IMG/VR virus record: IMGVR_UViG_3300012344_000011
Location: 75,825 to 139,824 of that record
Length of the DNA: 64,000 bases
Source: a virus
Lineage: Duplodnaviria > Caudoviricetes
Reading direction: 5' to 3' (one strand)
Position numbers and translations under genes: made by a program. Each line of letters begins with the position of its first letter. The stretch's first letter is position 1. Below are positions 3,872 to 59,148 of this stretch, piece by piece. The notes beneath the pieces are model-generated. The model saw only the letters and a list, made by a program, of their open reading frames with translations. It did not search any database and was not told the DNA's origin.

Positions 3872-6800
3872 TTAATAGTTGCGGTGTGCTGATTGATAAG
3901 CCATATCTGCGATATTAAGTAGAGCGTTTTCAATTTCAATAGAAGAAGTGACATTGGGGAAGTCAGCTTTTATTTCAACTCTTTGCTCAATAGTATCGCC
4001 ACCATTTGCTGCAAATAATTTGCTGTAGTCAGTAATATTATTACCTAGAATATTCTGCATTTGCCGCACTTGACTTACTATATCTAATAAGTTCTTAGTG
4101 TCAGTTGCGTTAAGAACAAGTTCTTTTTGGTGAAGAATTGCTAAACGACCTTCTTTTTCATCAATGCCGCCATTCCAAGAGCCAGTGTAACCGCCAGAGT
4201 CATATCTCTTAAATCTTGTATAATAATCAGTATCGTGCTTTCAATTATTCATTTTTATGAAGTATCTTACCAAGTCAACAAAACCAGAATAATTACCCCA
4301 CCATTCTGCGGAAGCAACACCAGCTAACCTATTTTCATAATCAGGATCATCATCATCATTACCATATGACGAATAGTTGCCCGCATTAACAATTGAACCT
4401 GCAATTGCTTCTGCCCATTCATAGTTAGATAATGAAGCAAGATCTTTATCACTAGACCATACTCTACCAGAAGCATAATTCTTGATTTCGCCAGGCATTT
4501 TATCTAAGCCACTTACAGAATTTAGCGCATCATTCGCAGTTTGAGATAATGTTTTGAACTCATTATTCAAATTATTGACAATTGTTGAGGCTTTGTTGAA
4601 CTGCGTCTGTAGCTGTTTAACAATTTCTTGAGCAGCCTTGGCCATCTCACTAGTGATTTCTATGCAAACTTCGTCAATGCTTTTCTTAAGAGAAATCAAA
4701 TCAGCTTCAAATTTTGGTGATTCAAAACTTAGATTGTTTATTTTACTCTGTAAAGAGAAGATGGAAGCTTCAATAGCTTTGACCTGTTGACTGCTAATAT
4801 TTGCATTACCACCAAGATCACCATAGATTGTATCTAATGTTTCCTTCATTTTAGTAGAATAATCAGTTAGGCTATTTTCTAAGGCATTTAACAAATCTCC
4901 ACTATATTTGTTATATTCATCTAATACACCTGTAGTACTTTGTTTGACCTGTCCCGCAAGATCGGTCATCTTAGTTGTTACTTCACCAATTTTAGTATTT
5001 GTATCATTTGCAAATAGCTGGAATCTTGAATCAATTTCATTGATAGTTTCAGTAGAATCAGTTTGCATTTGTTTATAAATACCAGTAAGTGATTCTGCAT
5101 TTTCATTGGAAATTGTTTCTGTAGACTGAGCAACCTGTTGTAAAATTTCTAAACTATAAGTTTTTATGTTTTCAGATTGACCAGCACTATACTCTCCAAG
5201 AGAAGCCATAACTTCTTGGATGCGGGCTTTGCGCTCTTCCGCATCAAGATTTGCATCTGTCCATATTTCAATAATTTTATCTCTTGCATTGGTAATTTCA
5301 GAAATTGTATTATTCTCTGAATCAAGGAGAGCTTGCTTAGCGATGTTATATGCATTAATTTGTGCATCTAATAAATCTTGTTGCTTTTGAGCTACATCTG
5401 ATTCATCTGCTGTATAAACATAACTATAGTTGCCACTAGCATCTCTTTGTAATCGCATTTTTGTTTTCGCAGATTGAGCATCTTGTAAAGCAATTTGTTT
5501 CTCTAGAACGCTTAGTTGTGCATTAGCATAATCTATGTCGGCTTGCGTTAACTTATCTTTTTCTCTTAGATAATCTAATTGATCGTTCATTTGAGCAGAG
5601 ATTTGTTGCTGAATGCCAGTATTTTTCTGCGCCGCATCATTCAACATCTTTTGATAAGAGAACTGCAACTTTTGAATGTTATAAGCTTTATTCATATCAT
5701 CTAAATGAGCTTCTTCATTGCGTTGCCGCATTTCCCACTGACTCTGCATCCAATCTACATCACCACCAAGAAGAGAATTGGCAAATTCATTAGCAGCTTT
5801 GTTAGCTTGAATTTCAAGCCTTTCAGATATTTTTTCCAAGAGAGATTGTTCAGTATCCATCTGCTCAGATTGGAGATCTGTAATTTTATCTTTTGCATCT
5901 TGTAGTGCCTCTTCGTTCTCTTGACTCCAATGAATATTAGCTTGTTTTGTTTCTTCTAATTTATCAACTATAGATTGCCAATAATTGATTCCAGAAGATA
6001 AAGCATCTAGTTGTCCGTTGTATGCGGAAACGGCCAAATCATTAGCTGACAATTGATAATCATAACCTTTTTCACCGTAGAAAAGAGAAATTTGTTCAGA
6101 TAGACTATCTATAGAATCAATCAATCTATCATAAGAATCAAAGCGTCTTGAAATAATATCTTCCGCAGTATCTATTGCATCAGAAATTACTTCGTTTAAA
6201 CTCTCAAAACTGTTTATAATAGATTCTGATACAGTCTGAACTCTATCCATTGCATCTTTAAGATTATCATATGCGGCTTGCGCGGTAACCTCAGAATATT
6301 CATCTGTACCTTGCTTGGCAATTGCTTCTTGCATTTGTTTTTGCGCTTCTTCAAGTTGCTGCAAAGCTATTAGCTGTGGAGAACTATAAGAAGCAGATTT
6401 ATACTCTGCATTATCTTTTTCTTGCGCAGCAACAGAACCAATCGCTCGCATAACCGCATCTACGAAATCATTATACCCAGCAAAATCTCGTAGAACGTAT
6501 TCTTTGTCTCTATCAGGGTTTGCAGTTAAGATACTTTTTACAGCTGCGTCATAAAGAGCTTGCGCTTCATCTTTTTTACCTTCTTTTAATAAGTCAACCA
6601 TTGTGTGGAAGTTACCTTTATCAAAGACAGGACCTATGTCTCCGCCGCCAATAGTGCTCCAATCTACATTTGGATCTTCTCTTGGACCTAATTGATTATA
6701 GATTTGATTTGCACCAGATTGCTCAAGAGCACTATCGAGTAATTTATCACGAGAAACTTGTTTATCAAGGCCAAGCATTTTCTTTACATCATCTTCTGTA

Positions 6801-28133: not shown

Positions 28134-31100
28134 CTAATTTTTAGATCCAATTTTAGTGAACAAAGTCATAGCACTCAAATCTCTACTTGCTCTTCCTTTT
28201 CCTTTGTCCTCTTGGAGCTTGCAATAATAAAGACCATAAATCAAAGCAGATACTTTATCGTGCTTGATTTTTGCGTTTGCGGGCTTGAGGATAATAGTTT
28301 GTCCCTCAGATTTATCAACCAAATTGGCAAGCTGTTCCCGCAATACATTAGTAAGAACAAAAGGCTTGAGGTATTCATTTCTTTTTTCAATAGACATTTT
28401 TTGCCCACTACTTTGAGACATAAGTTTGTTTTTAGCAATACTATCATCAATTAAGAATTTTAGTTTACCATGCTGCATCTGCGTTTGGCAATAAGAATAC
28501 ATTTCAGAGTTGAGAGTAGCGTTTGCCCGCATTAGATACATCGCATTATGAATAGTATCTGGCGTCTCAAAGTTTTTATATTTTCTTCTTCCTGTTTTAG
28601 GATCTGGATCATCGTTGATAACACCTCAGTTATATAAGACTTCTCCTGTTTGCGGATCTACTTGATCTGTTACTAAGAAGTCTACTAGACCTGTACCTAA
28701 GCCATTAGCGTCAACCACTGCTACTTTACAGCGGTACTGTTGGAAAATTTGTTTGATTCTAATTGCTTGTTGTCCAAAGTGTTCCGCATCAATTGTATAA
28801 ATATTCACAATTTTTTTGATTGGTACGCCTGTCAAAGATGGCATTACTTTGATCACTAAAATTTCAGTCGTACAATTGAAACGACCAACATCAACGCCCA
28901 AGAGGTAGTATATCTTAGGAGTGTTTTTACCCGAAGGAGTATATTCAGGTAAGTTGATAATGCGGTTGCGGTCAAACACTTCTGTACTAAAGAATGCGGC
29001 TTCCACATCTCCTGCTCAATTAGAGTTATATTCTCTTTCAAATGTTGCTTCATTGAACGTCATATAATCCAATATTTCTATTGGTACTGACTATCTCTTA
29101 CTTAATATTATATTAAGAAACCCTTTTCGAAGCACTTCTCACTAGTGCCCCTACTTCTGTAAACCAGAATAGTCGATACAGCTTCAATTATTCTTCATAT
29201 TTTTATAAATATGAAGAATAAAAGCTTGCCACGGGATTACCATATCATAAAGACTTAGGCTTCCCCGTTAGCTTATTTTAGTAAATAAACCCCGCTGAGA
29301 AACGGAAAAAGTTTTTAGGGCGCGTTCTTCTTTCACCCTCAAGTTTGAGGTCGCTAACGAAAGAGCCAGAGATAAGCTTTTCCGCAACTGGGATTCTCCA
29401 GTCTCCACCAAAAACAAAAGCCTGATCTGGTCTAGCAACCATTTGACACAACATTTGAATTAGTCTATCATAAGCATAAGTATTCTTATATCCCGCAGAC
29501 GTAACAAAAGTTTGCGCTTGGTTCAAAATTTCATTTTCATCTACACTTCCGTCTGGAAGTCTTCTAGAAACATTAAGAGTAGGAATAATAACTTGCTGTA
29601 GCATATCTTGGTCTAATGTTGCAGCTTCTTCCATCACATATATTCTACGTAAATCGCCAATTTACGCACGTTTTTAACTGCTGCATATCACTATGCAGAT
29701 TAGACTATATCTTCTTATATTTATAATATAAGTTCCCTTTTTCCACTATCAGTGGCTTATAGTGTACGATTTTCATCTAGTCGTTGAACCTTTTGCTATC
29801 CGCAACTTGGCTGCTGATTGTCTAATCTGTTTACTTTTTGAACTATCACGCTTACCATTTCTAGTTACGTTGTAGTGTAAACAGTCCTAAAGAGTTTCCA
29901 GCAATTAAGGGAATTTATTGAGCTGAGCTGATGGATAATGTTAACCCAGCTTGAAAACGACGTCCTCTTGTTTTATCAGAGCACGCAACATTTTCTATTG
30001 TTGAACCATTTTTAAAAGTATAAATTACGCTATCTTTTGTTTGTCTTGTGCGGACGGTGCCCATTCCACGTGTATCCCAAATAACTTCTTTTGAGAAAGC
30101 TGGAATAAGTTTACAAATTTCTGAAATTTTGTCACTCAAAATTGATGCTGACTGTTCCTTCAGTTCTGTTATCGCAAAGGCTTTTTATCCTTTACTTCTT
30201 ATACTTTTTTTCGTATAAGCTCGGCATATCTTTTCTTCCTATAAAGCAATAGGAGTCGCGGCCTCTTGGTAGGATTATATCTTTTCACCTACTATGCTCT
30301 GCCCCTGACTGTAGTTCCTACAGCCTTCGGTTCGGGTTAGCGTCTCAGCCTTCCCGCTTAGTTCCGCGATTTATTTTTACTAAATTACTTTAGTAGAGGG
30401 CAAGTTTAGTATTTTGACATTCTTTATAATTCAAATATTTTTGATATTTTCTATCTAAATAAACAGTTGTATCACTATAAATCAAATCTAAAAAAGCATT
30501 GATTTTTTCTTTATCTCCAGTTTGTATTCTATATGCTCCATCAGGTTTTTCATAATGAACTGGATATAATGAACAATTTTCAAATAAACCAACTTGGTTT
30601 TTCAACCCTTTCAAAAAATCTTGACTACCTAAAATATTCATTCCTAGCTTATTTGCATACCAGAAAGAGCCATCTCCATCAAAGTATCCTCTAAGAAAAG
30701 GTGCTAAAAAATTATTTGGAACTTGTTCTTCATTAGGAAAATTTTAGAATAAGACTTCTACGTGATACACATCCTAGCTTTACTAAGTCTTGATTTATTG
30801 TTTTATTTTTGAATTGATAACGAAAACCACTAAGATTTTCTCTATGATATATTTTATTGTTTCTTCCAATAAAATTTTTGAATTTGACAAGATGAAAATA
30901 ATCTTGCTCTTGTAGAGTTAGTTCAATACCATAGTCATAGTTTTTCCATTATGAATATATCCATCTGCTTCTAAGAATCCAAGTCAATAAGCTTTTTCTT
31001 CATTATCAATTATCTTGAATTTATTTTCATCAAAAAACAATCTAAGCACTCCCTTCACTGTCTATATATTTTTACCCTCAGCAACAGTGAACAAGTGCGC

Positions 31101-35526: not shown

Positions 35527-35976
35527 ATGGAAGAACCTATTGTTTATGTGCTTGTTGGTTGCCCTGCTTGCGGCAAGTCTACTTTTGCAAAAAGCTTTGA
35601 TAATGATACTATCGTTATTTCATCTGATGCTATTCGTGAAGAACTCTATGGAGACGAAGCAATTCAAGGAAACGGCAACGAAGTTTTTGGCTTATACTAT
35701 GATCGTGCAATTGCCGCTATTGAAGATGGCTACAATGTAATTCTTGACGCTACAAACGTAACGCGCAAAGCAAGAAAGAATATTTTCTCTACTTTTGGAA
35801 AGAGTAATATTGACTGTAAATTTGTTGCAATTTGTTTTGAAAAAGAGCTTGATGTTTTGCTAAAACAAAATGCAGGAAGAGCAAGAAAAGTTCCTAGAGA
35901 AGTAATTGAAAGAATGTATAATAATTATGTGCGCCCGGTAGAGCAAGAAGGGTTTGACAGAATAGTTTTTATGTAG
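35527..35976 (+). CDS. AAA_33 / polynucleotide kinase-like P-loop kinase
   Basis: VGCPACGKST, ISSDAIREEL, ILDATN, terminal EGFD. Confidence 0.85.
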   Translation: MEEPIVYVLVGCPACGKSTFAKSFDNDTIVISSDAIREELYGDEAIQGNGNEVFGLYYDRAIAAIEDGYNVILDATNVTRKARKNIFSTFGKSNIDCKFVAICFEKELDVLLKQNAGRARKVPREVIERMYNNYVRPVEQEGFDRIVFM

Positions 35977-49039: not shown

Positions 49040-49221
49040 GGTTACCCTATAACATAATTTCAAATGGAGTAAACGATAGTAAAAGGAAATATATAGGGCA
49101 AATTCAAATCTTTTATTTTATAGTCAAGAACTTGAAAACTTGACTAACAGAGAGGAAAAGTTGTGGGAGGTTGCCCGCCTCTTGCTTCAGGTCATAGGTA
49201 GCGTTCTGCCGCACTTATCTT

Positions 49222-49524
49222 TCACCAACTCTCAGTATAACCATAATGAGAAAGCAACTGACGAATATTGTCTGCTCCAACAGGATTCATACTATGAATA
49301 TGAAAAACACTCATAGGAATATCATTACTTACAATATACTTTGCAATATCATACCCAGAAACAGTAGACCCAAGATCATGATCAAAGTCAATCCCAAAGC
49401 TGGTTTCAGTTTTCCAGCATTCATCTATAAGACTTTTCATCTGTGCAGCAGTTCTTACAAGAATTGCTTTAAACCCAATAGGTACTTCTCTTTCATCGTC
49501 AAGATAAAACCAAAGCATTATCAT
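49222..49524 (-). CDS. Cyclic-phosphate-processing receiver domain protein
   Basis: FYLDDEREVP..DFDHDLG..SGYDIAKYIV..IHSMNPVGADNI signature. Confidence 0.75.
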   Translation of the reverse strand: MIMLWFYLDDEREVPIGFKAILVRTAAQMKSLIDECWKTETSFGIDFDHDLGSTVSGYDIAKYIVSNDIPMSVFHIHSMNPVGADNIRQLLSHYGYTESW

Positions 49525-49527
49525 ACC

Positions 49528-49791
49528 TCACTCATAGTCCCAGCATGCTTCTTGATGTTCTTCCTCTAGAATTGCATCTGCTTCTGTTGGATAGAAGAAC
49601 TCTTTGCGGTGAAACACCCAATCATAAGCAGGTTCAGCACCAGTAAGCCGCAACAGAGTCAACATATCTTGAACAGCAGGATCAAGGATGTTACCATAAG
49701 AATTAAGAATCTCACAGATACGCATCTTCGCGTATCCATTCTTAAAGTTGTCTGCAATTTCGACATAGCGCCGCAACATATAATCAACCAT
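49528..49791 (-). CDS. Hypothetical protein
   Basis: 87 aa, own promoter and AAGGAG RBS; ends in a TGA overlapping the next gene's GAGGT RBS. Confidence 0.55.
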   Translation of the reverse strand: MVDYMLRRYVEIADNFKNGYAKMRICEILNSYGNILDPAVQDMLTLLRLTGAEPAYDWVFHRKEFFYPTEADAILEEEHQEACWDYE

Positions 49792-49883
49792 TCTTAACTC
49801 CTTTTCTCTTTCTCAACAATAATATTATACCATATTTATTGCCCTACTGTCAAGAAATTCTCTAAACTACTAGGAGGAAACTC

Positions 49884-51353
49884 CTAGTAGTTTACCTTTT
49901 CATTGATATAATCAATGATATCCCAACAACCATTCTCCTTCATATTGATGAAATCGAACACCTTGTTTCCAAGAGAAGTCAGAAGTACAACATCCTTGTC
50001 CTTGGGATCGCATACCTGAGTATGGTAGTTACCAAGATCAAATGAATAAACCTTGCTCTTACCATACTTAGCGCTATAAGTCTTATAGGAATCAAAACCA
50101 TTATGCAAATAATAGTAATCACTTCCCATAATCTGCATATCACTGATAATGAAGATGCGGGAATAGCTCTTCTTAAGAAGAGCAAAAGCCGTTCCAATGA
50201 CAGTGCCATAGCCGCATCCATCATTCTTAGCAAATGCTTCGATCATCTCAAAAACATTTTCAGAAGTATAGCCAATTGCCCACTCTGCATTAGTGCCAAA
50301 CTTGACAACATCAACCTTACCAAGATTCTTCAAAGCCAATGCTACTGCAAACACAGCTCCAGCTTCCTTGATACTGATGACACTGTTCTTACTGATAGGA
50401 TCTTCCATAGACCCGGACACATCAAGTAAAACAGCACTGTTACCATCAAAAGAAGGAACATTATCTATCGAAACAGAGAAAGCATATCCCAAAGACTTCG
50501 TAATCTCCTCATCACAGAGACCACTCTTTACTAGAGTCTTATAGCAAGTATAAATCTGATAAGGGAAAACCAAAGACTTCTTGATGGCTTCTGCGTTACA
50601 TAGCTGATCGCAAAGAACCTTAGTATAAGGAATCTTAACGATCTTTGGCAAGAACTCCATAGTCTGTAAAATATTGCGCACATTCCGCAAAAGAGCTAAA
50701 TATCCCAACTTCTCTTCTGCCAAAAGTTCACACCAAGCATAACCCTTTTCTTCTTCACTCTTGGATACACTGATACGCTGCTCCCAAGTTTCACACTTAG
50801 GTAGCACACCATTCTTATAAGCACAAATAGCAGAAGAAGTAGCATGGCAAATATTAATGCAATCAAACATATTATATACCTTACCACTCAACTTATACTT
50901 ATCAATGCTGTACGCTCCAAGAGAAGAAAGATAATCACCGCAGCCTCTTACAAGCGCGTGGCTACGCTTCTGACCCAAGGCATCGACAGCCGCAAAAATC
51001 TCTGCGACATCATCTGCACGATGACAAAAATTCTTATAGAACTGACGCTTGCGGTCGAAGCTCTTATCATTGAGCCACGCAGCCGTCATCTGCGAAATAG
51101 AACGCATACCAAGTTCATTGCGGGCATACACAGTTGCCTTCGCAATAAACTCATAACCATATGCCTTTGCCATCTTAGCAGTTAGATCAAAATAACGAAC
51201 CATCTGCTTTTCCGCAGGCTCATAGTAACGATCTTCTACCATACAACTACAAAGACAATTGAACCATTCCTCGGTGAGATCCTTTACAAAAACTTCGCCG
51301 CCTTCATAGGAAACAACATTAGAATACTTAGCTTCGTTACGATTAAAATTCAT
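49884..51353 (-). CDS. Ro60/TROVE + vWA RNA-binding protein (Rsr-like)
   Basis: TROVE: YEGG, YARNELGMRS, RADD, TWE, LGYLALLRNVRNI, VFPYQIY. vWA MIDAS: LLDVSGSM, GT, ISDMQ. Confidence 0.88.
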   Translation of the reverse strand: MNFNRNEAKYSNVVSYEGGEVFVKDLTEEWFNCLCSCMVEDRYYEPAEKQMVRYFDLTAKMAKAYGYEFIAKATVYARNELGMRSISQMTAAWLNDKSFDRKRQFYKNFCHRADDVAEIFAAVDALGQKRSHALVRGCGDYLSSLGAYSIDKYKLSGKVYNMFDCINICHATSSAICAYKNGVLPKCETWEQRISVSKSEEEKGYAWCELLAEEKLGYLALLRNVRNILQTMEFLPKIVKIPYTKVLCDQLCNAEAIKKSLVFPYQIYTCYKTLVKSGLCDEEITKSLGYAFSVSIDNVPSFDGNSAVLLDVSGSMEDPISKNSVISIKEAGAVFAVALALKNLGKVDVVKFGTNAEWAIGYTSENVFEMIEAFAKNDGCGYGTVIGTAFALLKKSYSRIFIISDMQIMGSDYYYLHNGFDSYKTYSAKYGKSKVYSFDLGNYHTQVCDPKDKDVVLLTSLGNKVFDFINMKENGCWDIIDYINEKVNY

Positions 51354-51380
51354 ACTTTTTCTCCTTCAAAATAAAAAAAA

Positions 51381-51459
51381 TGGAGCGGATATACTATATA
51401 AAAGACTACAATTAATAATTCATTCTCTAAGAAGTAAGCCTTTTATCCATCACGCTCCA
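51381..51459 (-). ncRNA. Y-RNA-like unit 5, short loop, followed by U8
   Basis: TGGAGCG-TGATGG-ATAAAAGGCT-TACTTCT..AGTCTTTTAT-ATAGTATATC-CGCTCCA. Confidence 0.7.
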
Positions 51460-51463
51460 ACCT

Positions 51464-51591
51464 AACTCTTGGAAATCATTAAGAGACGCTTGTGCTCTAC
51501 CCATTGAGCTACCTGACACCGCAGGATTGGACTCGAACCAATAACCTTTTCTTTATAAATAGAAGTAAGTCTCTTAACCATCACAAAAGTT
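51464..51591 (-). ncRNA. Y-RNA-like unit 4 with permuted tRNA-mimic domain (YrlA-like)
   Basis: Shared scaffold enclosing T arm ATTGG-TTCGAGT-CCAAT, closed acceptor CCTG/CAGG, then D arm TAGCTCAATGGGTAGAGC. Confidence 0.8.
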
Positions 51592-51595
51592 CCTT

Positions 51596-51681
51596 GCATT
51601 AGCGGAAACCATATAAAAGACGTAAGTTTTGGGTCTAAATATAATTTTTAGAAGTAAGTCTTTTATCCATCACGCTATTGC
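51596..51681 (-). ncRNA. Y-RNA-like unit 3, short loop
   Basis: GCAATAGCG-TGATGG-ATAAAAGAC-TTACTTCT..GTCTTTTAT-ATGGTTTC-CGCTAATGC. Confidence 0.7.
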
Positions 51682-51690
51682 TTTTACTTT

Positions 51691-51802
51691 TAGCTAATCT
51701 TGAAAATCACTAAAAGGCAATACGCTCTAACCCATTGAGCTACCCGCTGGAAAGGAGTCGAACCAATATCTTATTAGCCTTTCAACAATCACAAAATTAC
51801 TA
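51691..51802 (-). ncRNA. Y-RNA-like unit 2 with permuted tRNA-mimic domain
   Basis: TAATTTTG-TGATTG-TTGAAAGGC..GGTTCGACTCC..GGTAGCTCAATGGGTTAGAGC..GCCTTTTAG-TGATTTT-CAAGATTA. Confidence 0.75.
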
Positions 51803-51888
51803 TATTTGCTGGAAATTATACAAAAGACTTGTTATTTGATCTCATACCATAATTTTAGAAGTAAATCTTTTGTCCGTCACAGCATATA
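51801..51888 (-). ncRNA. Y-RNA-like unit 1, short loop
   Basis: TGCTG-TGACGG-ACAAAAGAT-TTACTTCT..GTCTTTTGT-ATAATTTC-CAGCA. Confidence 0.7.
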
Positions 51889-52000
51889 AGTGACACCTGA
51901 ATTCGTGGCAGGTGCGAATAGTTTTGATTTTGAGCAGACTATAAACTGCGGTTCCACGAAACCCGATATATAAAATCAATTCCCTTGACCTTATACATAT

Positions 52001-52030
52001 ATTATAACATATTTATTGAACGGTTGTCAA
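52001..52030 (-). promoter_or_regulatory. Consensus extended -10 sigma70 promoter for the Y-RNA array/Ro60 unit
   Basis: TTGACA..TGTTATAAT. Similar promoters precede most units between 43 and 59.5 kb (~44604, 47779, 48999, 49852, 54931, 56197, 56496, 59401). Confidence 0.75.
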
Positions 52031-52037
52031 CAAATTT

Positions 52038-52832
52038 TTATTTATATATCTTATTATATGCTTTTAGTATATCTTGTTGCCCTATCCATGCATTTTTCCC
52101 ATTAACAGATGATAAAAAATTAAAATGTAAATTTTGAAAACGTTGTTTTAAAATATCAACATCTATATTTGATTTAATATAGTGTTCTGCCTTAGGGTTT
52201 GTAATCTCTCGAAGTTCTTTTACTTTTCCAGAATTTCCGTTAATACTAAAGTTTGCAGTAGTATCACCTCGGGGCAAAAAAGAAAAATCTTTACTTGGTA
52301 GCTCTTTAACTTGTCTTAAATTAATTTCACTATCTTGCTTTGTCCATACATAAAAACTACAAGGAACATAATACTCTTTATTATCTTCAGTAATAAAAAC
52401 AGATGATTGCAAAGGATGTTCCACAATTAATTTCCAATCCTCTGGAAATAATGATAAAGATTGATTAGTTAATTTGCTAAAGGTGTTAGGCAGAATAAAA
52501 GCAATCGTCTCTGCGCCAATATTTTGAGCATGTTTAATAAATTTTTTAGCTAATTGACTTCGCTTACCGAAAGGAGGATTCCCAATAACTAAAATATGTT
52601 GTTTATTGGTAATAGGTTGTACTAAAAACCAATCTTTTTGAATAATGTCAGAGTGCTCAGGCTCAATGTCATAGGCAATACAATTATTTAATTGTGAACT
52701 AAATGCTCCATTGCCCGCACTCGGTTCAATAATACAATCATAATCATTTATGTTAGGAACTAACGCAATACATTTTTGAGCATTATCATTGGTCGTATAA
52801 TATTTATCTATACTCAAATTCAAATCACCCAT
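52038..52832 (-). CDS. Amino (likely N6-adenine) DNA methyltransferase
   Basis: DKYYT, IIEPSAGNGAF (motif I), VIGNPPFG (motif IV). Confidence 0.85.
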   Translation of the reverse strand: MGDLNLSIDKYYTTNDNAQKCIALVPNINDYDCIIEPSAGNGAFSSQLNNCIAYDIEPEHSDIIQKDWFLVQPITNKQHILVIGNPPFGKRSQLAKKFIKHAQNIGAETIAFILPNTFSKLTNQSLSLFPEDWKLIVEHPLQSSVFITEDNKEYYVPCSFYVWTKQDSEINLRQVKELPSKDFSFLPRGDTTANFSINGNSGKVKELREITNPKAEHYIKSNIDVDILKQRFQNLHFNFLSSVNGKNAWIGQQDILKAYNKIYK

Positions 52833-52843
52833 TTTTCTATAAA

Positions 52844-53447
52844 TTATCTATAAAGAATTTCTTCTTTTAAATTAGCATCTAAATATAAATCGTACCAACG
52901 TTTAGTTGTTGTATTTTTCATATTATATACGTCAATTGTAATAGAAAATTCTTTATTCTGGTTGTTCTCATTGGCTTTTTTTGTTCCGTGAGTATAACTA
53001 CCCACATTCTCGATTTCTTTTAACATTTCATCTTTAGTCAGAACAAAGAAAACACTTTTATCAATATCATTTTCATTAATATAAAAACAATAATAAAAAT
53101 CAATATTCTGCCAAGGTCTTATTTGACGAATATTTAATTTTTCGTCCTTGTTTGTAAACGAAGTTTTAAATTCATAATAATTATCGTTATTATCTTTAGC
53201 GTCTCCTTTATTAAAAGAAGCTGACACTGGTTGGTAATTCATTTTTTTGCATAAAAATTTTTCTACCAATGGAGCCTTCTTTTGAGTTGATAAAGAAGAA
53301 ATTAATGTATAAAAACTATATCCGTCTGTTATTTCATAAACATTGGTGTTTAAATCTTCTTCTGAAAATTGATGTATAAGAGAATCTATTTTTTGTACTT
53401 TTTTTTAGAGTTACAAGGTTTTGCTTTTGAATTTCAGCTATTAACAT
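52844..53447 (-). pseudogene. Putative restriction endonuclease frameshifted in an A8 tract (53399-53406)
   Basis: GDAKD..YYEFKTS PD-(D/E)XK-like motif. The ATG at 53447 is out of frame with the body across A8. Adjacent to the MTase. Confidence 0.55.
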
Positions 53448-53527
53448 AATTATAATTATACCTTTTCATTATTTTTATGGACGTCGAGGACGTATCTTAT
53501 CACTTGGCAACAGTCTCATTAGTTATA

Positions 53528-54184
53528 CTAATTAAAATATTCCCAGTGATAACCTCCGCAAGTTTTTCTCTTTCCTTTACAACAAGCAGAAATATGAGAT
53601 CTACATTCAGTAGTTGAAGATTTATTATTATCTACAAGCCATCTAGCTGCTTCACTAGTAGAATTAAAAACTAAATTTTCTTCAATACAACGAACCTTAA
53701 TTGGAGAAGCAATAAGACCTTGTCTTGATAGCTCTGACGAATAATATCGTTTTTTCCAATCAACATTATCTCTATACTGAGAAACGATATTTTTAATGGA
53801 ATCAATAGAACAATCAAGAATTTTTGCAATCTCTGAACTAGTTAAAGATGTTGTATCATATAATTTCAAAACTTTCTTGTAATTTATTAAAGTTTTTCCA
53901 TCTCCACCCATCGTAGCATTATAACCATCATTATAAGAATTATAATATTTTATCCAATATTTTTCTTTTTCAGATGCTTCGTCACTAGAACATTCTTCTA
54001 TGATAGAAATATAAAAATGATCCTCTCCATATTTTGATATTGCGTTATAAAGAGGACGTTTTTCTTTTCTATTTTTTTTACTATCAGCGCAATGTTCTTT
54101 GAATCTCTTTTCAACAGAAAAATTTGTTTTTCCAATATAAACTTTATCATTTATGTCGTTTTCAATTTTATAAATGTATGCCAA
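53528..54184 (-). CDS. GIY-YIG homing endonuclease with NUMOD1
   Basis: YIYKIEN..VYIGKT, EKYWIKYYNSYNDGYNATMGGDG, KTCGGYHWEY. Confidence 0.85.
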   Translation of the reverse strand: MAYIYKIENDINDKVYIGKTNFSVEKRFKEHCADSKKNRKEKRPLYNAISKYGEDHFYISIIEECSSDEASEKEKYWIKYYNSYNDGYNATMGGDGKTLINYKKVLKLYDTTSLTSSEIAKILDCSIDSIKNIVSQYRDNVDWKKRYYSSELSRQGLIASPIKVRCIEENLVFNSTSEAARWLVDNNKSSTTECRSHISACCKGKRKTCGGYHWEYFN

Positions 54185-54222
54185 AATTAATCAGCTCCTT
54201 TTTATATTAATATGATTCAATT

Positions 54223-54275
54223 TATTGCATTAGTATAAAACAGACACGCCACGTGAAGGCTGCAATATTGTGTCC
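54223..54275 (-). ncRNA. Minimal HDV-like (theta) ribozyme at the tRNA-Met 3' end
   Basis: P1 GGACAC/GTGTCT (G1.U), P2 TATTGCA/TGCAATA, P3 GCC-TTCACGT-GGC, J4/2 CTAA. Confidence 0.85.
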
Positions 54276-54347
54276 TCGCGGGAGGTGGAATCGAACCACC
54301 ATATCATAGCTTATGAGGCTATTGAGTTACCAGTACTCTATCCCGCG
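54276..54347 (-). tRNA. tRNA with CAT anticodon (Met; Ile2 not excluded), no encoded CCA
   Basis: CGCGGGA/TCCCGCG, ATAGC-CTCATAA-GCTAT, GGTGG-TTCGATT-CCACC. Confidence 0.9.
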
Positions 54348-54348
54348 A

Positions 54349-54424
54349 TGGTGCCTTCTGTAGGACTTGACCTACACTCCTCGGTTTAAGAGACCGCCAC
54401 TTTGACCAATTAAGTTAAGAAGGC
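54349..54424 (-). tRNA. tRNA-Lys(CTT) with a 6-nt T loop
   Basis: GCCTTCT/AGAAGGC, CGGT-CTCTTAA-ACCG, ACCA end. Confidence 0.8.
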
Positions 54425-54433
54425 ATAATAAGC

Positions 54434-54496
54434 TTTGCTCCCTCTCGAACTATTAAACACTTGATTAACAGTCAAGCCTGAGTACAAGGGAGTAAA
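54434..54496 (-). pseudogene. Armless tRNA-Asn(GTT)-like element
   Basis: TTTACTCCCT/AGGGAGCAAA stem plus GCTTGA-CTGTTAA-TCAAGT arm; D and T stems absent, GTTCGA remnant. Confidence 0.55.
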
Positions 54497-54627
54497 AATT
54501 ATTGTGGGTCAGATTTGCATATTCGGCACTGACCCGTTGCAAGTCTCCTTTTCTTGCGCCCCGATTCACGACATTAGCCTTTGTCCAATCAGTGTTACCG
54601 TCCTAGTGGCTAATTCAGGCAACCGCT

Positions 54628-54888
54628 TGGTTCCTTGGGTGGGACTCGACCCACGACTAAAAGATTACTTTAGTACATCGCTTTCGCATTGTAGTCCGGA
54701 CTTTCTCTTCTTCCTCTTGGGAAGTCCCGTGTAAAGTCTCTACACATAGTATCTTAAAAATACCTTGCTCGAGATTAGCATATGTTTCCACTTAGCCTTC
54801 CCCGAATTAACGGGATTTTCATTACATATCGCTGCATAATGCTACTAATTACTAAAAATCTTCTACGCTACCACTGCGTCACCAAGGA
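54628..54888 (-). tRNA. tRNA-Lys(TTT) interrupted by a group I intron
   Basis: 5' half TCCTTGG-TG-ACGC-AGTGGTA-GCGT-A-GAAGA-TTTT; 3' half TAA-TCTTT-TAGTC-GTGGG-TCGAGT-CCCAC-CCAAGGA-ACCA. Confidence 0.85.
54668..54854 (-). mobile_element. Compact 187-nt group I intron in the anticodon (position 35/36)
   Basis: AATTCGGGGAAGGCT (P), GCTAATCTCGAGC (Q), GTAGAGACTTT (R), AAGAGAAAGTCC (S), terminal G. Confidence 0.8.
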
Positions 54889-54939
54889 ATTTAATAATAA
54901 TATTATAACATATTATTTATTCTTTTGTCAACAAAATCT

Positions 54940-55650
54940 TTATACCGACCCAATAGAAGAGATAAGAGAACGAGCAACTATTTCGTGAAGAACTCGCGGC
55001 AAAAGCTCTGAAACAAACTTGTCGTTACCCAGCTCTTCTTCTTCAATAGCATCACGATTATTCATAAAATCATCATATATAGCATCAGCTATATCAACTC
55101 TTCCTTCTATAAAAGAAGAAAAATTCTCAGCATCAATTTCTGTATAACCAGTGCTAAAGCAATCTTCAAATGAAGCACCTGCCGCAACCTTCTCAACCAT
55201 TTTACATAAACGATCAATCTCTGCGACACAAACATTAGCTTTTCTTGGATAACTTCTTGCATAACAACGATTGGTATCAATAAAAGCAAACAACTGTTCC
55301 ATCATTAGCGCCTTGTCAGAAAAAGCAATCTCAGAATTATACTTCTGCAAAGTATTCCATTGAGCAGAATACATAGGATTGATAACAATATCCTTCTCAA
55401 CAAGGGTCATTAAAGAAAGAAACTCCTGATCACGAAGAAGGTCTATATATTCTCGAAGATCAACAATTTCACACCACATACCATCTTCAAAGATATTACT
55501 ATTCTCGATCATATGTTCTCCATCAAGCAAATCTTGCAGAGTAGGAATAACAATCAGCTTGCCGCACCCATCAATTACAGAGAAGCAAAGCCAATCACGA
55601 TAATCAACAATAGAACGAAGTTCATCAATCTTTGCGGCATAATTACTCAT
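54940..55650 (-). CDS. Degenerate nucleotidyltransferase-like protein
   Basis: LIVIPTLQDLL..DLREYIDLL..INPMY..W..L..EIA resembles phage nucleotidyltransferases, but no GS..DxD motif is visible. Confidence 0.4.
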   Translation of the reverse strand: MSNYAAKIDELRSIVDYRDWLCFSVIDGCGKLIVIPTLQDLLDGEHMIENSNIFEDGMWCEIVDLREYIDLLRDQEFLSLMTLVEKDIVINPMYSAQWNTLQKYNSEIAFSDKALMMEQLFAFIDTNRCYARSYPRKANVCVAEIDRLCKMVEKVAAGASFEDCFSTGYTEIDAENFSSFIEGRVDIADAIYDDFMNNRDAIEEEELGNDKFVSELLPRVLHEIVARSLISSIGSV

Positions 55651-55830
55651 TTTCAATCCTTTTCACTACATCTTCAAAACTTGGAATTACAAATTTTTCT
55701 TTTATCTTATTACTAAGAAAAAAATCGAAAGACTCTTGACAAGAATCAGACCATTCATCATAATCAACCAAACAAAGGAAACCATTGAGTTTATTCATAT
55801 AATTCTGCATTCTATTACCTTTCTATTGGT

Positions 55831-55888
55831 AACTCAATTTCAGTAAAAACAGGACACACCACGTGAAGGTATTGAGTCAAAGTGTCCC
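55831..55888 (-). ncRNA. Minimal HDV-like (theta) ribozyme at the tRNA-Ser 3' end
   Basis: P1 GGGACAC/GTGTCCT, P2 GACTCAAT/ATTGAGTT, P3 ACC-TTCACGT-GGT, J4/2 CTGAA. Confidence 0.85.
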
Positions 55889-55889
55889 G

Positions 55890-55975
55890 CAGAATCTACC
55901 AGAATCGAACTGGCACTAGGTTATTCACCTAGGAAAGCTTAGCAGGCTTCTGCGCTACCATTACGCCAAGATTCC
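55890..55975 (-). tRNA. tRNA-Ser(GCT), no complete encoded CCA
   Basis: GAAGC-CTGCTAA-GCTTT, long variable arm CTAGGT/ACCTAG, G73. Confidence 0.9.
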
Positions 55976-55982
55976 ATTTAGC

Positions 55983-56069
55983 TGGTGCAAGCAAAGAGAT
56001 TCGAACTCTCAATCCACAACGGGCGCTTGATTTTGAGTCAAGATTGTATGCCAATTCCAACACGCTTGC
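55983..56069 (-). tRNA. tRNA-Leu(CAA)
   Basis: CTTGA-CTCAAAA-TCAAG, long variable arm, ACCA. Confidence 0.92.
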
Positions 56070-56210
56070 ATAATTATATTATACCATATTTACATAGCTG
56101 CTGTCAACCACTTTCTCTTGGAGGGAATGAATTTTAACTTTCATTCTTCCCTTACTGACAAATATATATTATATCATATTTACATAACTATCGTCAATAA
56201 GTATTTTATA

Positions 56211-56285
56211 TGGTGGTTCTGAGAAGAGTTGAACTTCTGTTTAGCGCTTATCAGGCGCTTGTACTAACCATTATACGACAGAACC
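56211..56285 (-). tRNA. tRNA-Ile(GAT)
   Basis: AGCGC-CTGATAA-GCGCT, ACCA. Confidence 0.92.
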
Positions 56286-56377
56286 AAAGGCTGAAGCACT
56301 TTAGTGACTCAGACATTGTGCTTCATATATACTTAGCTGCTTTTGAGTCTTATCGAACAAGTATGCAGCAACCTTGT

Positions 56378-56455
56378 TGGTGTCCCTGGCAGGATTCGAA
56401 CCTGCGCCCCACTGTTTAGAAGACAGTAGCTCTAATTCCACTGAGCTACAGGGAC
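56378..56455 (-). tRNA. tRNA-Arg(TCT)
   Basis: ACTGT-CTTCTAA-ACAGT, GCAGG-TTCGAAT-CCTGC, ACCA. Confidence 0.93.
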
Positions 56456-56556
56456 TTAATAATAATATTATAATATATTTTTTATTCTTTTGTCAAGAAA
56501 TTTTCTTTATAAAAACTTAATACATCAAGACCAAGAGAATCATCTAAAATCATATC

Positions 56557-57114
56557 TCAAGCATTCTTGCGGGCAGCTGCTCTATTTATAGTCTCTCGAT
56601 GAATAGACTGTATCTTAGATACAGCACCATTCTTTATAAGAGTCTTTAGAGAAATTGGCTTATAACCAATTACATTTGCCGCAAAATTCTTATGATAGCG
56701 ATCGTTTTTCTGCCATTGAGAATGATCATGTCCATGAAAATTCACAACAAAATCAAGTCCCTGAATAGGCTCGTGAGAAAGAAGAATCTTCTCTGCGATC
56801 ATAAGAGGTCCATCATAAACTTCATCAAAGACTTCAAGATACTTAGCCTTGGCTTCATCATCATGATTACCCTTGATCAATACCTTGTAAGCCTTAATTC
56901 GCTTTGCTACTTCAAGATCACCAACATCACCCAATAGAACAAGAGTATCATTCTTATGAGCAATTTTGTTTATGATAGCAAGCTGCTGTTCTGCGGGAAT
57001 CCAGTTCTTGTCCATCAACTTACAGTCCGCATCATTGAAATGCGTATCAGAGAAGATGTAAACAGAACCCTTTTCAGCCCACTTCTGAAACGGTGCATAT
57101 AACATATCAATCAC
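56557..57114 (-). CDS. Calcineurin-like metallophosphoesterase
   Basis: SDTHF, LGDVG, KGNHD, SHEP, HGHDH; start position approximate. Confidence 0.85.
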   Translation of the reverse strand: MIDMLYAPFQKWAEKGSVYIFSDTHFNDADCKLMDKNWIPAEQQLAIINKIAHKNDTLVLLGDVGDLEVAKRIKAYKVLIKGNHDDEAKAKYLEVFDEVYDGPLMIAEKILLSHEPIQGLDFVVNFHGHDHSQWQKNDRYHKNFAANVIGYKPISLKTLIKNGAVSKIQSIHRETINRAAARKNA

Positions 57115-57140
57115 ATTTACATCTTCTCCAATCAAAATAA

Positions 57141-57476
57141 TTAGGCTAGGCAATCAATATGATGACGCAAGAACGCACGATTCATATCACCCATTACTAC
57201 CATTTCAACAGTATCGAAACGAATTTGACCAGTAATTCCCATACCAGTCTTGTTAAGATAATCAAAAGCTTCCTTCTCTAGAACACCACGAAGCTGCTTC
57301 TCAGAATCAGTTTCACTCATTTCGTCTACAAAACGAATGCGAATAAAGACAAGTTGATCATCGTCATAAGCAACTGCATCAATATTCTCACTTACAACCT
57401 TGTCAACGATTTCATATCCACGCTTCTCAAGAAAAGTAATCGCCGTGCGCAAACCCCTAGAATAAAGATTTTCCAT
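57141..57476 (-). CDS. YraN/UPF0102-like nuclease-fold protein, catalytic ExK lost
   Basis: FLEKRGYEIV..IDAVAYDDDQLVFIRIR..IRFDTV..RAFLRHHI. Confidence 0.65.
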   Translation of the reverse strand: MENLYSRGLRTAITFLEKRGYEIVDKVVSENIDAVAYDDDQLVFIRIRFVDEMSETDSEKQLRGVLEKEAFDYLNKTGMGITGQIRFDTVEMVVMGDMNRAFLRHHIDCLA

Positions 57477-57544
57477 ATTCTCTTCTTTCTCTTGTCTCTC
57501 AACCTTATACTAATATTATAACATAATTATTAGTCTGTTATCAA

Positions 57545-57901
57545 CTAAAACTCTTCAACCATATGGCATAAACATTTTTTCTCAGATTTATAACAATATT
57601 GTAACAGTTCTATAATCTTGCGGTCATGCATGTCTCCGTTCCAAAAGACAATAACAGCGTCTGCGGCATCCACCATTTCTTCATAACAAACAGAAACAGC
57701 TTTCTTACCAAAGATATTCCAATTAGGTTCAAAAACCAAACACTCTAATCTATTTGTTTTTGCCCATTTTTCTACCATATCATTTACAGTAGAAGTAATG
57801 ATAGCGCCGCAATGATTGGGATTAATAAATACAGAAAAATCTATAGACGAAAGATTATCACTATATATCACTGTTACTATTGGTTTTTGACTAAAAGGCA
57901 T
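57545..57901 (-). CDS. SLOG-family (YspA/DUF2493-like) protein
   Basis: EKWAK..FEPNWNIFGKKA....EMVDAADAVIVFWNG. Confidence 0.6.
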   Translation of the reverse strand: MPFSQKPIVTVIYSDNLSSIDFSVFINPNHCGAIITSTVNDMVEKWAKTNRLECLVFEPNWNIFGKKAVSVCYEEMVDAADAVIVFWNGDMHDRKIIELLQYCYKSEKKCLCHMVEEF

Positions 57902-58112
57902 GGGACGGTTCCATCTCAAGACGCATGTCGTCTTTAACTTCTCTAAAAGTTTTTCCAGTAATAGCACTAAATATATAAATTGCCGTTCCAAGACTACCAA
58001 AAAATTCATCGTCATTAAGGTCAGCTTCCATTAAATCCTTAGAAATATATGGCATTAATGTCTCATAAATGGTATTTGCAACATAATCATATTGCTCTTC
58101 TGTTATTTGCAT
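57891..58112 (-). CDS. Small hypothetical protein with a tandem paralog upstream
   Basis: AGGAG RBS; MQITEEQYDYVANTIYETLMP. Confidence 0.6.
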   Translation of the reverse strand: MQITEEQYDYVANTIYETLMPYISKDLMEADLNDDEFFGSLGTAIYIFSAITGKTFREVKDDMRLEMEPSHAF

Positions 58113-58155
58113 AAAATCTCCTGAACTTTGTAATTATCACCATTGCGATTGGTTT

Positions 58156-58395
58156 TTAATTATGAATCCATTTAGAAACTATATTTTTCATAAGTTCATC
58201 AGACATATCTTTCATAATTTCATCATAAGTTTTTCCAGTAATAACATTGAACATATAAATTGTCGTTCCAAGGCCAGCGTTATATTCCTGGTCACTAATA
58301 TTAGCTTTTGTTAGACGACCTAAGACACGCGGCATTAACGTTTCATAAATAGTCTCTGCTGCACAATCATATTGTTATTCTGTTATCCCCATCAT
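58156..58395 (-). pseudogene. Tandem paralog of 57891..58112 with a nonsense TAA at codon 7
   Basis: MMGITE*QYDCAAETIYETLMP..LGTTIYMFNVITGKTY. Confidence 0.7.
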
Positions 58396-58405
58396 ATAAT
58401 TTCTC

Positions 58406-59131
58406 CTAAACCTTATAAAGAACATTATAAAGACCAATCATGCGGCTGTCAAGATCCTCAGACCACTGTTGATCAAAATGCATATGACCGTGTACCCAAA
58501 CATCAAAGTCCAACTCTTTACGAAGAATCTCAAGATACTTTTCACCGCAAGTTCGTATATAACGATCAAGGAGGAAAGGCAACATTTCTTTGACCAAAAC
58601 AGGTGCTTCGTGAGTAACAATCAGATCAAAATGTTCTTTATCATGCTCTGCCATAAAATCAAGACACGCATCAATGTTGACTACTTCTTGCGGCCACCAG
58701 TTGATTCCTTCAGTGCGCCATTTCTTATCATGACTCTCCGCACCATTGATACACAAAATATGTTTACCATCAATATCAAGCGTAGCAATAGTGTCTATAA
58801 TATAGATATTCTCAAAAGTAGTACCCATATAAGTGCATTGCCACATAGTACCACTATTCAAAAAATCAGGAGTACAATGCGGCATAGCTTCATAAATAGG
58901 ATAGCACTCGTGATTACCAAGCACAACAATAGTTTTCCAAGGCTTAGAATTTAGCCAATTCAAACGATAGTAATCCTCTTCACTATCACCGTGCCAGTCC
59001 CAGATAACACCAAAGTCACCTGCAATAATAACATAATCTTCAGAAGTTAGCTTTCGCATTTCCGGACTCTGGTTATAAGAGAAAGCTTCAAAGACTTCCC
59101 CGTGAATATCTCCATGACAATAAATTGCCAT
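58406..59131 (-). CDS. Calcineurin-like metallophosphoesterase
   Basis: GDIHG, AGDFG, LGNHE, THEAP, HGHMH. Confidence 0.88.
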   Translation of the reverse strand: MAIYCHGDIHGEVFEAFSYNQSPEMRKLTSEDYVIIAGDFGVIWDWHGDSEEDYYRLNWLNSKPWKTIVVLGNHECYPIYEAMPHCTPDFLNSGTMWQCTYMGTTFENIYIIDTIATLDIDGKHILCINGAESHDKKWRTEGINWWPQEVVNIDACLDFMAEHDKEHFDLIVTHEAPVLVKEMLPFLLDRYIRTCGEKYLEILRKELDFDVWVHGHMHFDQQWSEDLDSRMIGLYNVLYKV

Positions 59132-59148
59132 TTTTACCTCCAATTGTA

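Follow-up and report, generated by a model that had tools for sequence, protein, structure and literature searches.

Does a phage whose tRNAs are released by self-cleaving ribozymes also carry the enzymes that would make the resulting 3' ends usable? This question is raised by a region of the virus record IMGVR_UViG_3300012344_000011 (Duplodnaviria; Caudoviricetes), in which theta ribozymes, which are minimal ribozymes of the hepatitis delta virus (HDV) type, lie among tRNA genes and candidate RNA-repair genes. We analyzed the right-hand 64 kb of this 139,824-bp record, which is estimated to be 96% complete. We refer to this 64-kb stretch as the window, and coordinates are those of the window unless the genome record is named. 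All genes from 49 to 63 kb are carried on the minus strand, and features given with window coordinates lie on that strand unless otherwise stated. When we compared the region to GenBank phages by megablast, we obtained no match, and no near-identical relative is present there.

A ribozyme of the HDV type leaves the RNA upstream of its cut with a terminal 2',3'-cyclic phosphate, and CCA-adding enzymes require a 3'-OH. A first-pass annotation of this DNA held that the cyclic phosphate must be removed before CCA addition, a premise that is chemically sound, and proposed that the region encodes a self-contained pathway that heals RNA ends made by the ribozymes and by defense nucleases. We found that theta ribozymes occur on exactly the two tRNAs that lack an encoded CCA, that the set of enzymes is not self-contained, and that the genes around the tRNAs are, on balance, probably a generic phage RNA-repair and anti-defense kit that is placed beside ribozyme-processed tRNAs.

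Theta ribozymes follow the two tRNA genes that lack an encoded CCA

ARAGORN and Rfam identified six tRNAs at 54.2-56.5 kb, and a seventh, split tRNA was read from the sequence at ~54.6-54.9 kb. Five of the seven tRNAs in this island encode their CCA. The exceptions are tRNA-Met(CAU) (54276-54348; ARAGORN, Rfam and sequence) and tRNA-Ser(GCU) (55889-55975; ARAGORN and sequence). The whole 139.8-kb genome has nine tRNA or tRNA-like genes, seven of which encode CCA, and both of the CCA-less genes carry a theta ribozyme, located at 54223-54275 after tRNA-Met and at 55830-55888 after tRNA-Ser.

We assessed these ribozymes with a covariance model (R1) built from 12 relatives in other phages, which were gathered from viral contigs by pattern search, with the copies from this genome excluded. 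Within the 12 relatives, the P1/P2/P3 structure pairs in 97.2% of cells (slid controls, 37-57%), double changes are found in 11 of 15 pairs, and the G1·U pair is present in 12/12 seed sequences. A search of the whole genome with R1 returned two matches only, the Met copy (54 bits, E = 1.6e-10) and the Ser copy (29.4 bits, E = 1.2e-4), although R1 rests on one L3/P3 subtype and divergent ribozymes may escape it. With the other seven tRNAs encoding CCA, the first-pass claim that the ribozymes sit on exactly the two CCA-less tRNAs holds genome-wide. Rfam, searched at E values up to 1, gave no match to an HDV-type family in the region.

The elements located 3' of the CCA-less tRNAs read GGGACAC...CCTTCACGTGG.GTGTCCT (Ser) and GGACAC...CCTTCACGTGG.GTGTCT (Met). 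Both fold as a minimal HDV-like nested double pseudoknot (P1, P2 and P3) with a G1·U pair at the cleavage site. P1 is formed by GGACAC/GTGTCT in the Met copy and by GGGACAC/GTGTCCT in the Ser copy, and P2 by TTGCA/TGCAA and ACTCAAT/ATTGAGT, respectively. The two P2 sequences are entirely unlike, yet each is complementary, and P1, P2 and P3 all differ between the copies by compensatory changes. P3 pairs ACC with GGT in one copy and GCC with GGC in the other, the L3 sequence TTCACGT is common to both, and P4 is replaced in both by a short U-rich loop (L4 TTTTATA or TTTTTA). A C occupies the catalytic position, the first of J4/2, within ACTGA or ACTAA (ACTAA in the Met copy). Cleavage is predicted to fall after A73 in tRNA-Met, where the ribozyme G1 follows directly (offset 0 nt), and after G73-C74 in tRNA-Ser, which would be left on the tRNA (offset +1 nt).

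These elements closely resemble the theta ribozymes of gut phages (Kienbeck et al. 2024, PMC10879173), which are likewise minimal HDV-like double pseudoknots without P4, have G1·U at a cleavage site that is at or ≤1 nt from the tRNA 3' end, and accompany tRNAs without an encoded CCA, with tRNA-Met as a typical partner; as in those phages, a DRB0094-like RNA ligase is present in the genome. Unlike the situation in that study, the ribozymes here follow ordinary Met and Ser tRNAs, a UCA suppressor-like tRNA has a CCA and no ribozyme, and the phage has no CCA-adding enzyme of its own (PMC10879173).

The CCA-encoding tRNAs of the island comprise one with the anticodon loop CUCUUAA, which we read as Lys-CUU (54352-54424; Rfam 60.2 bits, no ARAGORN call), tRNA-Leu(CAA), tRNA-Ile(GAU) and tRNA-Arg(UCU) (55983-56455), which have promoter-like TTGAC-N17-TATAAT boxes upstream, and the split tRNA (54628-54905), whose two halves, CCA-terminated, lie around ~190 nt. 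Inside the split tRNA, Rfam gave no group I intron match at E values up to 1. Elsewhere in the window, two group I introns (29068-29357 and 29681-29953) reach the Rfam gathering score, at 50.1 and 70.8 bits. A nearly identical promoter-like motif of ~45 nt (TTGACAAAAGAATAAA.AATAT.TTATAATATTATTATTAA) precedes both tRNA-Arg (56456-56500) and the split tRNA (54890-54935), and tRNA-Leu is preceded by two related TTGAC...TATAAT boxes. Outside the window are a long-arm CAU tRNA and a long-variable-arm tRNA with the anticodon UCA (UGA suppressor type; genome record 51418-51514, plus strand), both of which encode CCA and lack a ribozyme. A related phage (L144) has a tRNA similar to this UCA tRNA within its tRNA array.

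Phages of ~100 kb (loci L014, L018, L020, L030, L033, L034 and others) share a near-identical HDV-like element (GCACTC...CCTTCACGTGGCGAGTGT). It has no adjoining tRNA and scores 35-41 bits with R1. Three of the phages that carry it were searched, and all were without strong phrog_547 (phosphoesterase) and cREC matches.

The genome encodes dispersed candidates for RNA healing and sealing

We then consider the proteins that might act on such ends, for which all activities and substrates are predictions. The gene at 49222-49524 encodes a cREC, a predicted cyclic-phosphate-processing receiver domain, as first annotated (PF20274, 68.6 bits against a cut-off of 27). Domains of this family are predicted to resolve or open cyclic phosphates and are linked to RNA ligases (PMC7824862, PMC9503650), and the family is described as experimentally uncharacterized (PMC9503650). 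If the region is read in code 4 (TGA = Trp), an 87-aa open reading frame (ORF) and the cREC gene join into one 215-aa frame (49144-49791).

Two metallophosphoesterases had also been called in the region, and both are above the PF00149 cut-off with their metal-binding motifs intact. The smaller, of 198 aa (56557-57153; PF00149 24.5 bits), is the second phrog_547-type paralogue of the genome (E = 2e-25), has the motifs DTH, GD, GNHD and GHDH, and is encoded by a gene that overlaps the upstream gene by 13 nt; by sequence, its sole match in the PDB is an uncharacterized Aquifex protein. The larger, of 245 aa (58406-59143; PF00149 48.6 bits), is of the phrog_1649 type (E = 1.8e-23), and a sequence search against the PDB found no match to it. 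The gene for the 198-aa enzyme forms one small operon with those for a small UPF0102 (YraN)-like protein (57141-57476; PF02021, E = 4.9e-4, below the cut-off) and for a SLOG (YAcAr/DprA-like) protein (57545-57901). The latter assignment, proposed by the first-pass annotation, is borne out by the predicted structure, which matches YAcAr/DprA-like clusters of a protein atlas at TM 0.91, 75-100% of which carry YAcAr. The SLOG protein also matches phrog_289 (E = 4.6e-6), its Pfam YAcAr match is sub-threshold (15.4 against 28.2), and its likely start is residue 39 of a 156-aa ORF. In another theta phage, a SLOG homologue adjoins a phosphoesterase. Tandem paralogous small ORFs of 73 and 59 aa (57891-58335), which are ~44-52% identical and have no family match, lie between the SLOG gene and the gene for the 245-aa phosphoesterase.

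A polynucleotide kinase and a HAD phosphatase had been proposed for the early region. The kinase is present as a Pnkp-like P-loop polynucleotide kinase (35527-35976, plus strand; AAA_33 76.8 bits, kinase part of TIGR04075 E = 3.5e-18). No HAD phosphatase was found with PF13419, PF12689 and PF08645, and a regular-expression scan for HAD motif I was also negative. New to the present analysis is a pair of genes at the left end of the genome record, outside the window (3931-5742, minus strand; L138/L139). The first encodes a putative DraRnl/DRB0094-like RNA ligase of 413 aa, which carries PF21189 (PHA02142 OB fold) and PF09414 (RNA_ligase) and matches TIGR02306 at 73.8 bits, under the cut-off of 151. 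The very next gene encodes a third predicted metallophosphoesterase of 183 aa, and it is this enzyme, not either phosphoesterase of the window, that is the best phrog_547 match of the genome (E = 1.2e-43 versus 5.8e-27). If the genome is circularly permuted, the ligase-phosphoesterase pair would lie ~10-20 kb from the tRNA island. A further PF09414 match, at 21.4 kb of the genome, was rejected as an RNA ligase, as it is an ATP-dependent DNA ligase, and RtcB was not found in the genome search.

The Ro60/Y RNA system that had been proposed stands for its protein part and is tentative for its RNAs. The Ro60 homologue (49884-51353; 489 aa) has TROVE and vWA domains (PF05731 42.2 bits; phrog_850 E = 1.3e-28), and the two YrlA-like (Y RNA) modules upstream of it (51494-51795) match RF02553 at 32.1 and 31 bits, with E ~1e-3, against a gathering score of 69. 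As in bacterial Ro60/YrlA modules, a TROVE and vWA protein has Y-RNA-like elements directly upstream on the same strand (PMC4201824). Unlike the bacterial modules, the one here is phage-encoded, its Y RNA matches fall far under the Rfam gathering score, and it shows no association with theta ribozymes.

The nucleotidyltransferase-like protein lacks its catalytic motif and no CCA-adding enzyme is found

Could the phage add the missing CCA itself? The nucleotidyltransferase-like gene of the first-pass annotation corresponds to an RlaP-like Pol-beta-fold protein of 238 aa (54940-55656), whose gene sits between the two theta-bearing tRNA clusters. The protein itself has no match to PF10127 or to any other Pfam family. 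An exhaustive HMMER search retrieved 19 distant homologues; of the 20 sequences in the resulting alignment, 13 match PF10127 (RlaP). With this alignment, AlphaFold produced a model with a pLDDT of 89.4 (38 in a single-sequence run), and the top Foldseek matches of the model in the PDB were ANT(4'), the nucleotidyltransferase-like 3c18 and HalB (probability 0.97-1.0, TM ~0.38). The fold that had been proposed is therefore retained, whereas the catalytic motifs are gone: 12 residues with the GSxNYGL motif are deleted, DGCGK stands in place of the family DxDxK (DVDTK), and the second catalytic Asp is missing. A relative at 90% identity also has the motif-less form in the alignment, and one at 76% identity shares a similar length only. 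Three other theta phages have RlaP homologues in which the motif is complete (GSxNYGL...SDxDxK).

RlaP adds 1-2 nucleotides to damaged RNA 3' ends (PMC12776372) and is predicted to replace missing nucleotides ahead of ligation (PMC7824862, PMC9503650). The 238-aa protein shares the fold and the C-terminal helical domain of RlaP nucleotidyltransferases (PF10127; PMC12776372), and in related phages the homologous gene, with its motif kept, lies next to RNA ligase genes. It differs from them in its 12-residue deletion, its lost second Asp and its score, which is under the Pfam threshold. We predict that it is a divergent, catalytically inactive RlaP-family homologue with a nucleotidyltransferase fold. 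Because the GS motif is deleted and the second Asp is lost, the window copy probably cannot add nucleotides.

For CCA-adding enzymes, a six-frame search of the genome, which is 96% complete, gave no PF01743 or PF01909 match; the same searches found PF01743 in 10/14 control genomes and PF01909 in 12/14. Theta phages have been reported to be enriched for the DRB0094-type ligase and for tRNA nucleotidyltransferase (PMC10879173). Because this genome has no CCA-adding enzyme, and its sole nucleotidyltransferase-like protein is without the active-site motif, the set cannot be called self-contained, and CCA addition is left to the host.

Relatives carry the same genes in putative repair clusters

When we compared the window proteins to fetched loci by tblastn, we found homologues at ~25-50% identity in distant theta phages, where they are gathered in compact clusters. 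One theta phage packs the kinase, RlaP, ligase and phosphoesterase into ~4.2 kb of one strand, another has the phosphoesterase, RlaP and cREC within ~1.9 kb, and a third has RlaP, cREC and the kinase within ~2.1 kb. Six further loci have the kinase and phosphoesterase genes side by side, much like a Pnkp divided between two genes. Heal-and-seal RNA-repair systems known from comparative genomics are built in this way.

The present genome resembles these systems (T4 Pnkp/Rnl and the bacterial Pnkp kinase-metallophosphoesterase-ligase; PMC7824862) in that it encodes a Pnkp-like kinase, calcineurin-type phosphoesterases and an ATP-dependent RNA ligase, and its relatives resemble them further in the adjacency of the component genes. 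It is unlike T4 and bacterial Pnkp in that the components are separate genes with predicted roles, scattered in the genome, and in that the ligase is of the DraRnl type. Among the kinase, ligase and phosphoesterase genes here, only the ligase and one phosphoesterase adjoin, and full clusters are seen only in relatives.

Healing enzymes are neither necessary for theta ribozymes nor specific to them

The first-pass annotation had offered co-occurrence of these genes with theta ribozymes across phages as a check. In a first comparison, 17 theta records were set against 19 records with chance pattern matches, and strong phrog_547 matches were found in 13/17 versus 1/19 and cREC in 3/17 versus 1/19. 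We rejected this contrast as evidence because the controls, which were 14-base pattern matches, came mostly from smaller phages, were unmatched, and were not chosen for tRNAs. The phosphoesterase contrast was rejected also because the strong match is the orthologue of the phosphoesterase outside the window and not of the two within it.

A second, independent sample was drawn from records of at least 77 kb and consisted of 23 new theta-bearing records and 26 records chosen only for a CCA-encoding tRNA. Three of these 26 proved to match the theta model and were counted as theta-bearing, giving 26 theta-positive and 23 theta-negative records, samples that are small and phylogenetically dependent and in which many records are incomplete. 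The phrog_547 phosphoesterase was about twofold commoner in theta phages (15/26 versus 7/23, p = 0.085), yet no family reached significance (p = 0.085 to 0.38). The counts were 8/26 versus 4/23 for cREC (p = 0.33), 18/26 versus 11/23 for phrog_547 or cREC (p = 0.15), 12/26 versus 7/23 for RlaP (p = 0.38), 9/26 versus 3/23 for the OB domain of the DraRnl-type ligase (p = 0.10), and 1/26 versus 3/23 for Ro60 (p = 0.33). When all theta records were pooled and identical ribozymes were merged by eye, the phosphoesterase was found in 22/32 versus 7/23 (p = 0.007, uncorrected for shared ancestry).

Individual genomes depart from the association in both directions. Neither the phrog_547 phosphoesterase nor cREC is present in three complete theta genomes. 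Conversely, three near-complete phages without a theta match carry the homologues closest to the ligase-linked phosphoesterase (53% identity), and a 354-kb phage has three cREC genes and both phosphoesterase types with no theta match. Healing enzymes are neither necessary for theta ribozymes nor specific to them, and their enrichment is at most ~twofold.

A probable general repair kit beside ribozyme-processed tRNAs

Taking together the ribozymes, the gene identities, the cassettes of relatives and the co-occurrence counts, we favor a general repair kit because its partners (kinase, ligase and RlaP) are a break-repair set and because its distribution does not single out theta phages. The region would be an accessory "RNA maintenance" region of a large phage, with tRNA genes under their own promoters. 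The theta ribozymes would release the 3' ends of the two CCA-less tRNAs and should leave a 2',3'-cyclic phosphate on them. The cREC, the two metallophosphoesterases, the SLOG protein, the inactive-looking RlaP homologue, Ro60 with its Y RNAs, the kinase, the ligase and the third phosphoesterase would make up a dispersed heal-and-seal kit, whose main job is probably the repair of tRNAs or other RNAs cut by host defense nucleases. It is plausible that the kit also heals the ribozyme-made ends. In bacterial Pnkp, RNA is freed of cyclic phosphates by the metallophosphoesterase domain, and the E. coli CCA-adding enzyme has such an activity in its HD domain. One of the phage phosphoesterases may open the ribozyme-made cyclic phosphate, after which the host must add the CCA. 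Of the original proposal that these enzymes heal both ribozyme-made and defense-made ends, the repair genes are supported by homology and conserved neighborhoods, and the dedicated link to the ribozymes is not.

Several points weigh against a repair kit. Its components are scattered over this record rather than joined in one operon, the RlaP homologue of the window is without its catalytic motif, and Ro60 has no association with the other parts (1/26 versus 3/23). The enzyme activities of the kit, that of cREC included, are predicted from sequence. Moreover, SLOG, cREC and the phosphoesterases have also been predicted to degrade nucleotide signals, which is a different function.

This last point defines a serious rival, which we consider unlikely: cREC, SLOG and the metallophosphoesterases could serve counter-defense by binding or destroying nucleotide second messengers (ADP-ribose derivatives, cyclic nucleotides) and have nothing to do with tRNA ends. 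Comparative-genomic papers predict such roles for cREC, viral SLOG and T5 A1-like calcineurin-type phosphodiesterases (PMC7824862, PMC9503650), the SLOG, YraN-like and phosphoesterase genes here share one small operon, and the same genes occur in many phages without theta ribozymes. However, the setting of cREC in three other phages is one of RNA repair, directly beside RlaP, a Pnkp-like kinase or a phosphoesterase, and among the ORFs scanned here we saw no Nudix, Macro, sirtuin or other NAD-linked partner.

Alternatively, the enzymes could be dedicated to maturation, mainly finishing the ribozyme-cut tRNAs by removing the 2',3'-cyclic phosphate for CCA addition. The chemistry demands that this phosphate be removed, and the theta paper is silent on the step: it does not address how a cyclic phosphate end proceeds to CCA addition, and the word "cyclic" is absent from it (PMC10879173). 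The end of one phosphoesterase gene is ~100 nt upstream of the tRNA array, the theta-bearing clusters flank the RlaP-like gene, and phrog_547 is about twice as frequent in theta phages (15/26 versus 7/23; 22/32 versus 7/23 after merging, p = 0.007). Against this, the enrichment in the size-matched sample falls short of significance (p = 0.085) and is uncorrected for shared ancestry, the cREC counts are 8/26 versus 4/23 (p = 0.33), the phrog_547 phosphoesterase and cREC are both missing from three complete theta genomes, and close homologues of the phosphoesterase (53% identity) are found in the three near-complete phages without theta ribozymes. Maturation of a 3' end also needs no kinase or ligase partner, and the genome is without a CCA-adding enzyme by the PF01743 and PF01909 searches. 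We judge this explanation improbable.

A related idea, to which we give a slimmer chance still, is that a phage phosphoesterase (a metallophosphoesterase or cREC) is a licensing step that times when the theta-cut tRNAs become usable; the cyclic phosphate would then block CCA addition until the phage enzyme is made. Least probable is incidental proximity in a variable accessory region that gathers unrelated small genes, tRNAs, a homing endonuclease and a methyltransferase, which would fit the interspersed GIY-YIG endonuclease, methyltransferase-like gene and ORFs of unknown function, the promoter-like boxes of the tRNA clusters, and theta-to-phosphoesterase distances of 5 to 34 kb in relatives, but not the recurrence of the same genes as tight clusters, in varied combinations, in distant phages.

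Neighboring genes

Interspersed among the genes described above are a GIY-YIG endonuclease gene, a methyltransferase-like gene and several functionally unassigned ORFs. The methyltransferase-like gene (264 aa, 52038-52832), which has an NPPF motif and matches phrog_5172/799, was rejected as the nucleotidyltransferase-like gene. It adjoins a 141-aa ORF without a family match (the two together at 52038-53269), with which it may form a modification/nuclease pair unrelated to tRNA processing.

Implications for theta phages

The RlaP homologue of this phage presents a small puzzle, in that a protein without its active site has kept its length in relatives down to 76% identity. The locus also supplies candidate proteins for a first biochemical test of cREC. 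For theta phages in general, the published account leaves unexplained how a tRNA that ends in a cyclic phosphate is made ready for CCA addition. Many theta phages encode predicted end-healing enzymes that could act at this step, and the question narrows to whether a host enzyme suffices alone or acts together with a phage phosphoesterase. If the phage phosphoesterase did license the cut tRNAs, then in recoded relatives this step would also set when suppressor tRNAs are activated.

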